This document shows positions 10,772-41,384 of a stretch of DNA of 64,000 nt, piece by piece. Position 1 is the first letter of the stretch. The number at the start of each line of letters is the position of its first letter. Made by a program: the position numbers and the translations under genes. Below the pieces are notes generated by a model that was not told the origin of the DNA, made no database searches, and saw nothing but the letters and a program-made list of their open reading frames with translations. This stretch comes from Escherichia coli (GTDB lineage Bacteria > Pseudomonadota > Gammaproteobacteria > Enterobacterales > Enterobacteriaceae), in the NCBI RefSeq assembly GCF_044324875.1, contig NZ_CP172185.1; one strand, given 5' to 3'.

Positions 10772-12364
10772 CTATAACCCAGGCGCTTTCCATAACGACG
10801 TCGTCAGTCCATGATCAACCAGCCCCAGCTGATCCTGATAAACTGCCTGCCACTTATCCCGTGAATCCTGATAAAGTTCATGCTTTTCCGGGTCTGGTGT
10901 GTGCGTCCGTTCCCAGCGAACCAGGCGTTCTCCGGTTTCTGCCATTGATGAAAAAATTCCGGCACCGACGCCAGCTGCAATGGCACATCCTAATGCGGTG
11001 GCTTCTTTGACCACCGGAATATTGACGGGTAATCCCGAGACATCAGCGAGAATTTGACTCCATAATTTCCCTTTTGAACCTCCGCCTGCAAAGACTAACG
11101 ATGAAGGATGAATATTCGAGAAATCAGCGATTTGTTGCAAATTACACGCTGATACAATCGCCGCATTTTCTTCCAGCGCACGGAACAACGTCGCTTTGTT
11201 ACATTTATCCGGATCAATAGACAAATTAATAAAGGAAGGCGCAGCGTGATACCAGGTTTTAAAGCGCATTCTGTCGGAGAATATCGGCATTACGCCCCAC
11301 GACCCAGGCGGCACCCGACTTGCCATCTCTTCCAGCAGCGTATAGGTGTCGATGCCTAAACGTTCGGCAATCAGTTTTTCTTCGGCACAGAAAGCATCGC
11401 GGAACCAGCGCATGGTGAGTCCGGTAAAAAAGCTTATAGATTCAGCTTGTACCATGCCAGGAATAACATGAGGATTAACGCGCACGTTCATTTCTGGGTC
11501 TGTCACCGGCGCGGCTAAGTTTACAACTTGCTGCCAGAATGTGCCGCCAAGAACAGCGGTTTGTGCCGGACGCACAACGCCTAACCCCAGGCAACCAAGT
11601 TGCACGTCGCCTCCTCCAACGACCACCGGAGTGCCCGCCTTCAGACCGCAGAGTTCCGCCGCTTGTGAACTTACCACGCCCAGCAATGTGCCGGTTTCTT
11701 TGACAGGAGAAAGAATATCGGCCCGCAGTCCGGCCATATCCAGCAATGCAGGTTTCCAGTCACGGGTGGTTAGGTCAAGAAGTCCCGTGGTGCCAGCGTT
11801 AGAGGGATCCACCGCCAGTTCGCCGCTGAGCATATAGGCCAGCCAGTCGCTGATCATGGTGATGGTCGACGCCTGTCGGTAGATATCAGAACGATGGTGC
11901 GCCAGCCAAAGTAATCTGGGAATAGCGCTTAAAGCCAGCGTTTGTCCGGTGGCGCGATAAACTTCGTTTTCAAAGGTATTGTTGTGCAGTTCTTTAAGTT
12001 CGCTAACTTCGCGCGCCGCTCTGGCATCCACATTGGCGCAGGCCCAGATCGGTGTTCCTTCATTGTTATATAAAACAATGCCTTCGCGCATCGAACATGC
12101 CGAAACGGCAGCGATATACTCCGGGGCTATGCCGGCGTTGTGCAGCGCCTGGCGCATACACTCACACGCCAGTTGCCAGTTTTTGTTGAGATCAAATTCC
12201 ATAGAACCAGGAACGTCCGGTACTGCCAGATGCCGCCACTCCGCCTGTCCCACTGCTATTTGATTGCCTTCCAGGTCGAATATCACAGCCCGAATACTTC
12301 CGGTGCCTGCATCCAGCGCCATCAGGTAGTACTTTGATTCTGAAGGGGTAAAGAGTCGAGCCAT
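10772..12364 (-). CDS. lsrK: Autoinducer-2 kinase
   Basis: 530 aa, FGGY carbohydrate-kinase fold, N-terminus [35 protein letters not shown]; synteny with lsrR and lsrACDBFG. Confidence 0.95.
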
Positions 12365-12442: not shown

Positions 12443-13396
12443 TTAAATACGTAAAATCGCCGCTGCTGTGTCCTGATCGGTAACCAGTGCGTTGATATAG
12501 CCGCCTTTCATTGCAGCGGCAATGGCTTCGGCTTTATTTTCTCCCCCTGCCACACCAACCCGGACGGGAATGGTCTTCAGCGCGCTTAAAGGTAAGCCAA
12601 TCAGTTCGTTATGTATTTTAATATCCGTGACAACGTCACCTTTTGCATCAAAAAAGTAGCCTAAAATGTCGCCAACCGCCCCTTTTCGACCAATCATTAA
12701 CTGTTCGCCCTGGCTGATATAGCCGGAGCGAATGATTGTTGCGTCGTCTTGTTGACTCACAGCCCCAATGCCGACAATCGCCACATCCGCTGCTTGCGCG
12801 GCTAGCAGAACGTCTTTGACGCAATTTTCATTTTTTAGCGTACGGGCAATGTCAGCGGAGGATGCCCGCAACGGAGCCGGAATAATATTCACACTGCACG
12901 CCGCGTTAAGCTGCCCGATACCCGTCATATAAGAACCGACGCCACCGGAGAGCGTGACCAGGCGAATTTGCTGTGACGAAATAAAACCACTTAAGCGTTG
13001 CAGCGTATTCATGGTTGCCTCGCCAAAACCAATCGCCAGCATCTGTTGTGGTTGAAGTAAACTCATCAACATATGCGCCGCGCCTATCCCCAGTCGCCCG
13101 CCGACATCAGCATCCGCAAGCCCAGGGATCACCCGGACATGTTGTAGCGAAAACTGACGACGTAATTGTGTTTCATATTCCAGACAGCCTTCAAAGCGAG
13201 AATTAATCTGCACGCGAATAATGCCGGACTGATGCCCTTTCTCCAGTAATCGCGACACTTTCAAACGGGTCAGCCCGAGACGATCGCTGATCTCGCTCTG
13301 GGTCAGCCCGTCGTGGTAGTAAAACCACGCGATCCGCGCGACCTGTTCTTCTTCACACATTCCCTGTTCTGAAATTGCCGAATCGTTGATTGTCAT
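12443..13396 (-). CDS. lsrR: lsr operon repressor (SorC family)
   Basis: 317 aa; N-terminal HTH ([31 protein letters not shown]) plus sugar-phosphate-binding domain. Confidence 0.95.
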
Positions 13397-13644
13397 AATT
13401 CATTCTTCACTTTGAACATATTTAAATCTTTAATGCAATTGTTCAGTTCTTGCGCATTTATATCTGTGATAGCAACCACAGTTTGACTCTACGAGCATGA
13501 ACAAACGCAACCGTGAAAATCAAAATAGCATAAATTGTGATCTATTCGTCGGAAATATATGCAATGCCCGCCTAAGGTTATGAACAAATTAAAAGCAAAA
13601 ATACATTTGTTCAAAACTCACCTGCAAAACTGAACGGGGGAAAT
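13397..13644. promoter_or_regulatory. lsrR–lsrA divergent promoter region with a CRP-like site
   Basis: 248-bp AT-rich intergenic region between divergent lsrR and lsrA; TGTGATAGCAACCACA at 13465..13480 resembles the CRP consensus TGTGA-N6-TCACA. LsrR operator positions not resolved. Confidence 0.5.
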
Positions 13645-15180
13645 ATGCAAACGAGTGATACCCGCGCGTTACCGCTACTTTGCGCCCGCTCGGTTTATAA
13701 ACAGTATTCAGGGGTTAATGTCCTGAAAGGCATCGATTTTACGTTGCACCAGGGGGAGGTCCACGCCCTGCTCGGCGGCAATGGTGCCGGTAAATCGACG
13801 TTAATGAAGATTATTGCCGGTATTACCCCTGCTGATAGCGGTACGCTTGAGATTGGGGGCAACAACTACACCAGATTAACGCCAGTTCATGCTCATCAGC
13901 TGGGCATTTATCTCGTTCCCCAGGAACCGCTGCTTTTTCCAAGCCTGTCGATAAAAGAAAACATCCTGTTTGGTCTGGCAAAAAAACAACTCTCCATACA
14001 GAAAATGAATAACTTGCTGGTGGCGCTGGGCTGCCAGTTTGATCTGCATAGTCTGGCAGGATCGCTGGATGTCGCCGATCGCCAAATGGTGGAAATCCTC
14101 CGTGGGCTGATGCGCGACTCGCAGATTCTGATCCTCGATGAACCTACCGCCTCGCTTACCCCTGCGGAAACCGAACGCTTGTTTAGTCGCTTGCGGGAGC
14201 TGCTTGCTACTGGCGTGGGTATTGTTTTTATCTCGCATAAGCTGCCGGAAATTCGCCAGATTGCCGATCGGATTAGCGTGATGCGCGACGGAACTATCGC
14301 CTTAAGCGGCAAAACCATCGAACTGTCTACCGACGACATTATTCAGGCCATCACGCCAGCGTTACGGGAAAAATCGCTCTCTGCCAGCCAAAAATTATGG
14401 CTGGAGTTACCTGGCAACCGCCCACAACATGCCGCCGGAACGCCGGTGCTGACACTGGAAAACCTGACCGGCGAAGGTTTTATGAATGTCAGCCTGACGC
14501 TTAATGCCGGAGAAATTCTGGGGCTGGCTGGGCTGGTGGGGGCCGGACGCACAGAACTGGCCGAGACGCTCTATGGTCTGCGTACTTTGCGTGGCGGACG
14601 CATTATGCTGAATGGTAAAGAGATCAATAAATTATCCACTGGAGAACGTTTACTGCGCGGTCTGGTTTATCTGCCGGAAGATCGCCAGTCATCCGGACTG
14701 AATCTCGATGCTTCGCTGGCCTGGAATGTCTGCGCCCTTACTCATAACCTTCGTGGATTCTGGGCGAAAACCGCGAAAGATAACGCCACACTGGAACGTT
14801 ATCGTCGGGCGCTGAATATTAAATTTAACCAACCGGAACAAGCTGCGCGGACCTTATCCGGCGGCAACCAGCAAAAAATCCTGATTGCCAAATGTCTGGA
14901 AGCCTCGCCGCAAGTATTGATTGTCGATGAGCCGACGCGCGGCGTGGATGTCTCAGCCCGTAATGATATCTACCAGCTGTTGCGCAGCATCGCCGCACAG
15001 AATGTGGCAGTGCTGCTTATCTCCTCTGATCTGGAAGAGATCGAACTGATGGCAGATCGCGTATATGTGATGCATCAGGGCGAAATTGCCCACTCTGCAC
15101 TGACCGGACGCGATATTAATGTCGAGACCATTATGTGCGTTGCCTTCGGCGATAGTCAGCGTCAGGAGGCGTCATGCTGA
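13645..15180 (+). CDS. lsrA: AI-2 ABC transporter ATP-binding protein (two ATPase domains)
   Basis: 511 aa; Walker A motifs GGNGAGKST and GLVGAGRTE, signature LSGGNQQK. Confidence 0.95.
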
Positions 15181-16202
15181 AATTTATTCAGAACAACCGT
15201 GAAATCACGGCACTGCTGGCGGTGGTGCTGCTGTTTGTATTACCCGGTTTTCTCGACCGCCAGTATTTAAGTGTGCAAACGCTGACCATGGTTTATAGCA
15301 GCGCGCAAATCCTGATCCTGCTGGCAATGGGCGCGACGCTGGTAATGCTTACGCGCAATATTGATGTATCAGTGGGTTCGATTACCGGAATGTGCGCGGT
15401 GCTGTTGGGGATGTTACTGAACGCAGGATATTCACTACCTGTTGCCTGTGTCGCGACTTTACTGCTTGGTTTGCTCGCGGGATTTTTCAACGGTGTCCTG
15501 GTCGCGTGGCTAAAGATCCCTGCCATTGTTGCCACCCTTGGCACGTTAGGGTTGTACAGAGGCATCATGTTGCTGTGGACTGGCGGCAAATGGATTGAAG
15601 GGTTACCCGCCGAACTGAAACAGCTCTCCGCACCGCTGCTGTTTGGCGTTTCCGCGATTGGTTGGTTGACGATAATTCTGGTGGCATTTATGGCCTGGCT
15701 GCTGGCAAAGACGGCGTTTGGACGCAGTTTTTATGTCACGGGCGATAATTTACAGGGCGCTCGTCAACTGGGCGTTCGTACGGAAGCCATTCGCATTGTG
15801 GCATTTTCGTTGAACGGCTGCATGGCGGCACTGGCGGGAATTGTGTTTGCTTCGCAGATTGGTTTTATCCCCAACCAGACCGGTACCGGGCTGGAGATGA
15901 AAGCAATTGCAGCCTGCGTGCTGGGCGGCATTAGTTTGCTCGGCGGTTCCGGCGCGATCATCGGTGCGGTATTAGGCGCATGGTTCCTGACGCAGATCGA
16001 TAGCGTACTGGTGCTGTTGCGCATTCCGGCATGGTGGAACGATTTTATCGCGGGCCTCGTGCTGCTGGCGGTGCTGGTGTTTGATGGACGCCTGCGTTGT
16101 GCGCTGGAACGTAATCTGCGGCGGCAAAAATATGCCCGCTTTATGATGCCACCGCCATCCGTTAAACCCGCTTCGTTAGGTAAAAAACGGGAGGCCGCAT
16201 AA
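15174..16202 (+). CDS. lsrC: AI-2 ABC transporter permease
   Basis: 342 aa polytopic membrane protein; overlaps lsrA by 7 nt. Confidence 0.95.
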
Positions 16203-17194
16203 TGCGTATTCGCTACGGTTGGGAACTGGCTCTTGCCGCACTGCTCGTTATTGAGATTGTCGCATTTGGTGCAATTAACCCGCGGATGTTAGATCTCAAT
16301 ATGTTGCTGTTCAGCACCAGTGACTTTATCTGCATTGGCATTGTCGCCCTACCGCTGACGATGGTGATTGTCAGTGGCGGGATCGATATTTCGTTTGGTT
16401 CGACCATCGGCCTCTGCGCCATTGCATTGGGCGTACTGTTTCAAAGTGGTGTGCCGATGCCGCTGGCGATTCTCCTGACCTTACTGCTCGGCGCATTGTG
16501 CGGGCTGATCAACGCCGGATTAATTATCTATACCAAAGTTAACCCGCTGGTGATTACGCTTGGCACGCTGTATCTGTTTGCCGGAAGCGCCCTGCTGCTT
16601 TCCGGGATGGCCGGAGCGACGGGGTACGAAGGTATTGGTGGATTCCCGATGGCGTTTACAGATTTCGCTAACCTGGATGTGCTGGGACTCCCTGTTCCGC
16701 TGATTATCTTCCTGATATGTCTCCTCGTTTTCTGGCTCTGGCTGCATAAAACCCATGCCGGACGTAACGTGTTTTTAATTGGGCAAAGCCCGCGTGTGGC
16801 GGTTTATAGCGCGATTCCAGTTAACCGCACCTTGTGTGCGCTCTATGCCATGACGGGGCTGGCGTCTGCGGTCGCCGCTGTGCTGCTGGTATCGTATTTT
16901 GGTTCAGCACGTTCCGATCTCGGTGCGTCGTTTCTGATGCCCGCCATCACCGCCGTAGTGCTCGGCGGTGCCAATATTTATGGTGGTTCTGGTTCCATTA
17001 TCGGCACCGCCATTGCGGTTTTATTAGTGGGATATTTGCAACAAGGTTTGCAAATGGCAGGAGTGCCAAATCAGGTGTCCAGCGCCCTTTCCGGTGCGCT
17101 ACTTATCGTCGTTGTCGTAGGTCGTTCCGTTAGCCTGCATCGCCAGCAAATTAAAGAGTGGCTGGCGCGTCGGGCCAATAACCCATTGCCATAA
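16202..17194 (+). CDS. lsrD: AI-2 ABC transporter permease
   Basis: 330 aa polytopic membrane protein; 1-nt overlap with lsrC. Confidence 0.95.
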
Positions 17195-17205
17195 AGGATA
17201 TCTTC

Positions 17206-18228
17206 ATGACACTTCATCGCTTTAAGAAAATCGCCTTACTTAGCGCGCTTGGCATTGCCGTAATCTCTATGAATGTGCAGGCGGCAGAGCGTATTGCATT
17301 TATTCCCAAACTGGTTGGCGTAGGATTTTTTACCAGCGGTGGCAACGGCGCACAACAAGCGGGTAAAGAGCTGGGCGTTGATGTGACCTACGACGGGCCG
17401 ACAGAACCCAGTGTTTCTGGTCAGGTACAGTTGATTAATAACTTCGTCAATCAGGGGTATAACGCCATTATCGTTTCTGCGGTTTCGCCTGATGGCTTGT
17501 GTCCGGCACTGAAACGCGCCATGCAACGTGGTGTGAGAGTGCTGACCTGGGACTCTGATACCAAACCGGAGTGCCGCTCTTACTACATTAATCAGGGAAC
17601 GCCCGCCCAGTTGGGAGGTATGTTGGTGGATATGGCGGCGCGTCAGGTGAATAAAGACAAAGCCAAAGTCGCGTTTTTCTACTCAAGCCCCACCGTTACG
17701 GACCAAAACCAGTGGGTGAAAGAAGCGAAAGCGAAAATCGCCAAAGAGCATCCTGGCTGGGAAATTGTCACTACGCAGTTTGGCTATAACGATGCCACTA
17801 AATCGTTACAAACCGCAGAAGGAATATTAAAAGCGTATAGCGATCTCGACGCCATTATCGCCCCCGATGCCAACGCCCTGCCCGCTGCCGCACAAGCCGC
17901 AGAAAACCTGAAAAATGACAAAGTTGCGATTGTCGGATTCAGTACGCCAAATGTGATGCGCCCGTATGTAGAGCGCGGCACGGTGAAAGAATTTGGCCTG
18001 TGGGATGTGGTTCAGCAAGGCAAAATTTCAGTTTATGTCGCGGATGCATTATTGAAAAAAGGATCAATGAAAACGGGCGACAAGCTGGATATTCAGGGCG
18101 TAGGTCAGGTGGAAGTCTCGCCAAACAGCGTTCAGGGCTATGACTACGAAGCGGATGGTAATGGCATCGTACTGTTACCGGAGCGCGTGATATTCAACAA
18201 AGAGAATATCGGCAAATACGATTTCTGA
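17206..18228 (+). CDS. lsrB: AI-2 periplasmic binding protein
   Basis: 340 aa with signal peptide [26 protein letters not shown]. Confidence 0.95.
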
Positions 18229-18254
18229 TGTGCATTACTTAACCGGAGTACGTT

Positions 18255-19130
18255 ATGGCAGATTTAGACGATATTAAAGATGGTAAAGATTTTCGTACCG
18301 ATCAACCGCAACAAAATATCCCTTTTACCCTGAAAGGTTGCGGTGCACTGGATTGGGGAATGCAGTCACGCTTATCGCGGATATTTAATCCGAAAACGGG
18401 TAAAACCGTGATGCTGGCCTTTGATCATGGTTATTTTCAGGGGCCGACTACCGGACTTGAACGCATTGATATAAATATCGCCCCGCTGTTTGAACATGCC
18501 GATGTATTAATGTGTACGCGCGGCATTTTGCGCAGCGTAGTCCCCCCGGCGACCAATAAGCCGGTGGTACTACGGGCGTCAGGTGCAAACTCTATTCTGG
18601 CGGAATTAAGTAATGAAGCCGTGGCGTTATCGATGGATGATGCCGTGCGCCTGAACAGTTGCGCGGTGGCGGCGCAGGTTTATATCGGCAGCGAATATGA
18701 ACATCAGTCGATCAAAAATATTATTCAGCTGGTCGATGCCGGAATGAAAGTGGGAATGCCGACCATGGCCGTGACAGGCGTGGGCAAAGATATGGTGCGC
18801 GATCAGCGCTATTTCTCGCTCGCGACTCGAATCGCCGCTGAAATGGGGGCGCAAATTATCAAAACCTATTATGTCGATAAAGGTTTTGAACGGATTGTTG
18901 CCGGATGTCCGGTACCCATTGTTATTGCTGGCGGTAAAAAGTTACCGGAGCGCGAAGCGCTGGAAATGTGCTGGCAGGCTATCGATCAGGGCGCTTCTGG
19001 TGTGGATATGGGGCGTAATATTTTCCAGTCTGAACATCCGGTGGCGATGATGAAAGCCGTACAGGCGGTGGTACACCATAACGAAACGGCTGATCGGGCA
19101 TATGAACTCTATCTGAGTGAAAAACAGTAA
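18255..19130 (+). CDS. lsrF: 3-hydroxy-5-phosphonooxypentane-2,4-dione thiolase (class I aldolase fold)
   Basis: 291 aa; operon position after lsrB. Confidence 0.9.
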
Positions 19131-19153
19131 CTGCGGATTTAAGGAGAAGAATT

Positions 19154-19444
19154 ATGCACGTCACACTGGTTGAAATTAACGTTCATGAAGACAAAGTTGA
19201 CGAGTTTATCGAGGTCTTTCGCCAGAACCACCTGGGCTCGGTACAGGAAGAAGGCAATTTGCGCTTCGATGTCTTACAGGACCCTGAAGTGAATTCGCGC
19301 TTTTATATCTACGAAGCCTATAAAGATGAAGACGCAGTGGCATTCCATAAAACCACGCCCCATTACAAAACCTGTGTCGCGAAACTGGAATCTTTAATGA
19401 CCGGGCCGCGTAAAAAACGTCTGTTCAATGGGTTGATGCCGTGA
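19154..19444 (+). CDS. lsrG: Phospho-AI-2 (P-DPD) isomerase
   Basis: 96 aa [29 protein letters not shown]...; last gene of the lsr operon. Confidence 0.9.
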
Positions 19445-21177: not shown

Positions 21178-21345
21178 GGTTATCTTCAGGCGTGGAAAAG
21201 TCGCCCTATTAAACGTGATTACGATCACATTCTCAAGACGCTACGTACAAATTATCTACAAGCTTACAACATTTACAGGTGTGGCATATGGCACCCGTTA
21301 ATGATAAAGGCACATAGGATGTTGTAACTAATATAGTGAAATAAG

Positions 21346-29521: not shown

Positions 29522-29670
29522 ACCGTGATGTTACCGACTCTCTGACGCGGAACAGAATCAGCGTCAGAGAAACGGAAAACGCGATCCAGATCACAAATGC
29601 ATTGTATTCACATCATTAACCGTTTTAAGATCATTTCATCACTTTTTCGCAACTCACCCGATAATCTGTT

Positions 29671-41208: not shown

Positions 41209-41384
41209 TTCATTTCCTCTCATCCCATTCGGGGTGAGAGTCTCTCCCCCCGCCTTATGGCTCATGCATGCATCAAAAAAGATGTGAGCTTGATCAAAAA
41301 CAAAAAATATTTCACTCGACAGGAGTATTTATATTGCGCCCGTTACGTGGGCTTCGACTGTAAATCAGAAAGGAGAAAACACCT

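Follow-up and report, generated by a model that had tools for sequence, protein, structure and literature searches.

We analyzed 64,000 nucleotides of Escherichia coli DNA (the window), which include the repressor gene lsrR, the adjacent lsrK, and, on the other strand, the lsrACDBFG operon for uptake of AI-2 (Table 1). An earlier reading from the sequence alone (the first-pass annotation) had named the two divergent genes as lsrR and lsrA and put 248 bp between them; the NCBIfam equivalog models, the annotation of E. coli 042, and the coordinates all bear this out. In E. coli 042, the identical stretch carries the same gene annotation, lsrR included. The 248-bp control region is 100% identical to that of E. 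coli 042 and of some other strains, and has six single-base differences from K-12 MG1655. Among 5426 complete genomes of E. coli, 4178 contain it. The Shine-Dalgarno sequence of lsrA, CGGGGG here, is CGGAGG in other genera. Farther along the window, exact colinearity with E. coli 042 is lost from about 35,467 onward, and about 45,000-64,000 corresponds to a lambdoid prophage in that strain (tail, capsid, and Lom-family genes).

Table 1. Genes and regulatory features at the lsr locus (positions are those of the window).
Feature	Position	Strand	Description
lsrK	10772-12364	minus	NCBIfam equivalog match far over the cut-off
lsrR, repressor, first gene of lsrRK	12443..13396	minus	NCBIfam NF011947 equivalog, 619.6 bits versus a cut-off of 486
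lsrR-lsrA divergent control region	13397..13644		248 bp between the two start codons
lsrR-proximal LsrR operator	13413..13445		TGAACA-N21-TGTTCA; 33 bp; perfect inverted arms
Candidate lsrR -10, AACAAT	13438..13443	minus	Predicted start near 13431
CRP site, CRPII in the literature	13465..13480		TGTGA-TAGCAA-CCACA; center 13472.5; 22-mer 13462-13483
Central conserved element, an LsrR-arm-like half-site	13498..13522		TGAAC-N15-nnTCA; midway between the CRP boxes
Second CRP box, CRPI in the literature	13536..13551		TGTGA-TCTATT-CGTCG; center 13543.5; 22-mer 13533-13554
Candidate lsrA -10, TAAGGT	13573..13578	plus	Predicted start near 13585
lsrA-proximal LsrR operator	13581..13613		TGAACA-N21-TGTTCA; 33 bp; perfect arms
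lsrA Shine-Dalgarno sequence, CGGGGG	13635..13640	plus	Conserved; 5 nt before the lsrA start codon
lsrA, first gene of lsrACDBFG	13645..15180	plus	NCBIfam NF011967 equivalog, 950.4 bits; annotation in E. coli 042
lsrA, C, D, B, F, G (lsrACDBFG)	13645-19444	plus	NCBIfam equivalog matches far over the cut-offs

The first-pass annotation had also reported a near-consensus CRP site in the control region, matching 9 of 10 half-site bases, and considered it consistent with catabolite control. The coordinates and the count are right: TGTGATAGCAACCACA occupies 13465-13480 and has a single mismatch to TGTGA-N6-TCACA (its right half is CCACA). The match to this palindromic consensus lies within a 22-bp, A/T-flanked site. 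With at most one mismatch allowed, the pattern occurs five times in the 64 kb, as compared to 1.99 expected from shuffled sequences. We also scored the window with an approximate, symmetrised weight matrix, for which 17 classical CRP sites served as the training set. The 22-mer that contains the site scores 11.85, which is within the range of the training sites and ranks 4th among 63,979 positions.

The same matrix gives high scores to several sites elsewhere in the window. Its best 22-mer is AAACGCGATCCAGATCACAAAT (29577-29598, score 17.3), about 83 bp upstream of ydeA, which encodes an L-arabinose exporter of the MFS family. A near-palindromic CRP-like sequence, AAACGTGATTACGATCACATTC (21211-21232, score 15.1), lies between yneE and uxaB, 34 bp upstream of the annotated start of yneE. 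The 22-mer AGATGTGAGCTTGATCAAAAAC (41280-41301), upstream of ydfZ, also has a CRP score of 15.1, and its right half, ATCAA, looks FNR-type; ydfZ is activated by FNR.

A scan of reference genomes for LsrR yielded 26 loci, from which we took the lsrR-lsrA intergenic regions. Outside of Buttiauxella, the length is nearly fixed (248-251 bp), and an alignment of the 20 distinct sequences needs very few gaps. The lineages compared were Escherichia, Citrobacter, Kluyvera, Superficieibacter, Serratia, Mangrovibacter, Edwardsiella, and one uncultured enterobacterium, and mean identities were computed over nine genus-level representatives. For the left half-site of the CRP box at 13465 (TGTGA), the mean identity is 1.00, and for the right half-site (CCACA), it is 0.93; for the 6-bp spacer, it is 0.44, and for the DNA beside the box, 0.44-0.63. 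In other words, the half-sites that CRP would contact are conserved across the orthologous regions and the spacer is not, a pattern of substitution that is classically expected where a regulator binds as a dimer. Of the 20 regions from outside Buttiauxella, 17 have this site as their best matrix match and three have it as their second best, and in all 20 it lies at -172.5 to -175.5 from the lsrA ATG.

Could the match be a chance resemblance without any function? One-mismatch matches do arise randomly, about two per 64 kb, but for any one stretch of 248 bp the expected number is only about 0.008. A chance match would also not account for conserved half-sites around a free spacer at a fixed position in nine lineages, and the literature marks the site as a CRP box. 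We consider this explanation to be effectively refuted. Judging from its sequence and conservation, 13465-13480 is very probably a functional CRP site.

That CRP controls the lsr system has been known since 2005, and in lists derived from RegulonDB, lsrRK and lsrACDBFG each appear as targets of CRP and LsrR. In the map of Hauk et al. 2016 (PMC5137460), the p-lsrR boxes come first, followed by CRPII, then CRPI, then the p-lsrA boxes, and CRPI is "very close" to TGTGCAAT, which is at 13558-13565 in the window. Given this order and the proximity of CRPI to TGTGCAAT, the site at 13465 is CRPII and a second box, at 13536, is CRPI; the published order matches ours. Godrie et al. 2026 (bioRxiv 10.64898/2026.06.09.730415) reported that deletion of crp abolishes the activity of Plsr, even in an lsrR mutant, and in their model CRP activates both lsrA and lsrR. 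Their Table S4 lists the K-12 version of CRPII as the top FIMO match for E. coli (score 16.9, p = 8.7e-7), at distances of 70 bp to lsrR and 178 bp to lsrA, and ranks the 13536 box second (p = 3.8e-5). Thus, the CRPII site is already known from published lsr maps and is the top match in a 2026 preprint. Genomic SELEX with CRP recovers the lsrA region, at a resolution that does not separate the individual boxes. A literature search using the site sequences returned nothing relevant. Overall, conservation, motif scans, published maps, crp genetics, and SELEX support the original suggestion of catabolite control.

The first-pass annotation did not include CRPI. Within this box (TGTGATCTATTCGTCG), GTGATC is invariant in the 20 sequences. 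In E. coli, its right half has essentially no resemblance to the consensus, and the matrix score is 3.5, versus 7-10 in several other genera. By its geometry (see below), CRPI has the most suitable position for direct activation of the AI-2 uptake operon. The strong box probably lies farther from the uptake promoter than CRPI does.

A third CRP-like sequence, at 13408-13429 (TTTGAACAT), scores weakly (6.9 with our matrix; published FIMO p = 7.3e-5). We rejected it as a CRP site because it is simply an arm of the lsrR-side LsrR operator. Published tallies of "up to 3" CRP sites may be too high on account of it. The Mangrovibacter counterpart of this sequence reads CTGTGAACA and has a matrix score of 12-13.

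The LsrR operators, which could not be resolved by eye in the first-pass annotation, are resolved with the alignment. The inverted repeat TGAACA-N21-TGTTCA has two perfect copies, one at each of the divergent promoters, and these are the only matches in the 64 kb (0.22 expected with at most one mismatch). The arms of both copies are invariant across genera. The lsrR-side copy overlaps boxes that were defined experimentally: it holds the published p-lsrR-box motifs AACAAT (13438-13443) and AAGATTTAA (13422-13430), both on the minus strand, and it falls in the published interval of -237 to -197, counted from the lsrA ATG. From the start of one operator to the start of the other is 168 bp, or about 16 helical turns. 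In 12 of 14 selected clones, the mutations that raised expression in the lsrA direction were located at or close to the distant operator on the lsrR side (PMC5137460). Because most of these up-mutations map to the distant operator, the two operators seem to cooperate, possibly by looping.

Midway between the CRP boxes is another conserved element. Its first nine bases, ATGAACAAA, are those of the left arm of the lsrA-side operator, and its TGAACA has a mean identity of 0.94, as compared to 0.44-0.53 for the flanks. In the lsr literature examined, we found no mention of this element. A speculative view, which we rate as rather unlikely, is that the region is a pseudo-symmetric nucleoprotein unit, with two outward-facing class II CRP promoters, operators that are in phase, and an LsrR-like half-site at the center of symmetry. 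The central element could then anchor an LsrR tetramer or a loop and so couple bending by CRP to looping by LsrR.

Which promoters do the two CRP boxes serve? A scan for consensus promoters and terminators (13350-13700) found nothing, including no sigma-70 consensus promoter, and an Rfam scan (13200-13800) gave just one sub-threshold snoRNA match, which is meaningless, and no RNA element. The promoter scan is uninformative for activator-dependent promoters, and an empty result is as expected if these have poor -35 elements. We considered -10 hexamers by their distance from the CRP boxes. AACAAT begins (13443, minus strand) 29.5 bp away from the center of CRPII, and TAAGGT begins (13573) at the same distance, 29.5 bp, from that of CRPI. 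With the hexamers at -12 to -7, each CRP box would be centered at -41.5, as in class II promoters. The sequences at -35 are CAGATA and CGGAAA. There is no usable -35 element, and the CRP site would overlap this position, as is typical of class II promoters.

The second and sixth bases (A and T) of both hexamers are kept in nine of nine lineages. For TAAGGT, which is outside of the operator, the conservation of the pattern TAnnnT in all nine counts as independent evidence. AACAAT lies within the LsrR operator, so its conservation is confounded and gives no independent support for a role as a -10 element. Within each half of the region, there are no alignment gaps between the CRP box, the hexamer, and the operator in any lineage. 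In contrast, the distance between the centers of CRPII and CRPI, which is 71 bp in Escherichia, drifts to 70 and 69 bp in other lineages. A drifting distance between the boxes, combined with gap-free halves, is easier to reconcile with two independent promoter modules than with a single, cooperative pair of CRP sites. For the same reason, we dropped the idea that CRPII and CRPI are held in helical phase with each other.

In Buttiauxella, the 29.5-bp spacing is not reproduced on the lsrR side, which we set aside because this lineage has no lsrR-side operator. On the lsrA side, counting by hand again gives 29.5 bp, to TACGCT. In Buttiauxella sp. A111, the lsrR-lsrA region is 317 bp, versus 195 bp in other Buttiauxella, and the extra length is a 123-bp insertion between the CRP-like boxes. 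The insertion is presumably an ERIC repeat (it matches the ERIC2 primer at 21 of 22 bases and the ERIC1R primer at 19 of 22). Another unusual case is Izhakiella australiensis, whose lsr intergenic region, at the end of a contig, is 91-93% identical to that of Citrobacter and 58% identical to that of E. coli. These identities suggest either horizontal transfer or a contaminant contig in the assembly.

Published transcript ends bear on the lsrR promoter. The supplement of Kim 2012 gives a 5' end for lsrR at window position 13403 (minus strand; three reads), 7 nt from the start codon. This end is 28 nt from the predicted start at 13431 and disagrees with the class II model. It has no -10 hexamer at a workable distance and lies downstream of a conserved GTGAAG block, and we think that it is probably a processed end or noise. 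The same supplement lists no start for lsrA and no start in Klebsiella, and Mendoza-Vargas 2009 lists an lsrR primer only.

The other candidate -10 hexamers are inside the operators and would imply class I positions, of -61.5 to -64.5 for lsrR and of -70.5 for lsrA (TACATT). On the lsrR side, CRPII could then be a true CRP site that acts as a class I activator, with AAATAT or TATGTT (13423-13415, minus strand) as the -10 element and transcription beginning at around 13408-13411. In this case too, the LsrR operator would span -35 to about -2, TATGTT or AATGTT keeps the A and T at the second and sixth positions in nine of nine lineages, and the sole reported 5' end of lsrR, at 13403, is nearer to 13408-13411 than to 13431. 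But AAATAT, which is the hexamer that gives exactly -61.5, keeps these two bases in just four of nine lineages, and TATGTT implies -64.5, which is outside of the usual helical register. The reported end rests on three reads, is 12 nt past TATGTT, and follows the GTGAAG block, and the candidate -35 elements are poor or mis-spaced. We regard class I activation of lsrR as possible but doubtful.

Another potential role for CRPII is as a distal upstream site that mainly serves the lsrA promoter, acting in tandem with CRPI (a class III arrangement). CRPII is the region's best match to the consensus, the lsr operon is not expressed without crp, and both boxes are present on the reporter fragments that have been published (-307 to +92). 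However, CRPII is just 70 bp from the start codon of lsrR, as compared to about 172 bp from that of lsrA, and its distance upstream of the start predicted for lsrA would be about 112 bp. This is beyond the positions at which CRP usually makes productive contact with the alpha-CTD of RNA polymerase. The spacing evidence also counts against a tandem arrangement: the distance between the boxes varies while the distances within each half do not. We consider the tandem arrangement to be unlikely.

Finally, CRPII could be chiefly architectural, so that bending of the DNA by CRP aids or hinders an LsrR loop without contact between CRP and RNA polymerase. LsrR is a tetramer, the operators are separated by about 16 helical turns, and the up-mutations in the distant operator imply that the operators cooperate. 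But crp is still needed in a strain that lacks lsrR, so CRP must do more than counteract LsrR, and the exact -41.5 geometry would have to be a coincidence at both promoters. We view a chiefly architectural role as very unlikely.

The best explanation, which we believe to be probable, is that CRPII is genuine and that the region contains two back-to-back class II CRP promoters, each under its own LsrR operator. For the class II, lsrR-proximal assignment of CRPII, our confidence ranges from about even to slightly better. In this model, once preferred sugars are exhausted, cAMP-CRP would bind CRPII and the half-site box CRPI. CRPII with AACAAT would drive lsrRK leftward, and CRPI with TAAGGT would drive the AI-2 uptake operon rightward, both as class II promoters. 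A 33-bp operator would overlap each promoter, beginning at about -14 or -4 and ending at about +19 or +29, and LsrR would block RNA polymerase until phospho-AI-2 releases it. An operator over each promoter would explain both repression and autorepression.

The value of this analysis is mostly in annotation, and one product that could be useful is a base-level map of the lsr control region. It also offers a proposal that could be useful: the strong CRP box would serve lsrRK, and the uptake operon would rely on a half-site box. If true, this arrangement would shape how the feed-forward loop of CRP and LsrR responds to cAMP, and it would be relevant to the engineering of lsr promoters for autoinduction.

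The closest known system is the lsrR-lsrA region of E. coli K-12 (Hauk 2016, PMC5137460), which is the same locus with the same length and order of elements. Both pairs of CRP half-sites and both pairs of LsrR operator arms are identical to those in the window, and none of the six differences from MG1655 touches a half-site or an operator arm. One difference is in the spacer of CRPII (A in the window, G in K-12), another is at 13598 in the central spacer of the lsrA-side operator, and a third is at 13559 (A in the window, G in K-12), within the TGTGCAAT box to which published up-mutations map.

The promoters that are regulated by CytR (deoP2, cdd, and nupG) resemble the lsr region in having two CRP boxes with a repressor-type element in between. 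Their tandem CRP sites are roughly 52-53 bp apart. We rejected this architecture for lsr because its CRP boxes are 69-71 bp apart and because the central TGAACA resembles an LsrR arm and not the CytR octamer. A link to CytR had been proposed for the lsr region by Hauk et al. 2016 (PMC5137460). Their up-mutations at 13561 (G->A) and 13562 (C->T) turn TGCAAT (13560-13565) into TACAAT or TGTAAT. From the sequence changes, a simpler reading than the authors' CytR site is that these mutations create better -10 hexamers.

The sugar operons deo (DeoR) and gal (GalR) also combine a specific repressor, which is freed by a phosphorylated or sugar ligand, with activation by CRP, and they too have two operators that are an integral number of helical turns apart. 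LsrR differs from DeoR and GalR in being a SorC-type regulator with unusually long, 33-bp operators, and looping in the lsr region is putative.

As for the promoters themselves, galP1 and melR are class II promoters with CRP centered at -41.5. The predicted lsr promoters would be like class II promoters in that the CRP box is 29.5 bp upstream of the first base of a candidate -10 hexamer and there is no recognizable -35 element. Unlike galP1 or melR, the lsr region has two such predicted units back to back, 71 bp apart from center to center, and each is under a repressor operator.
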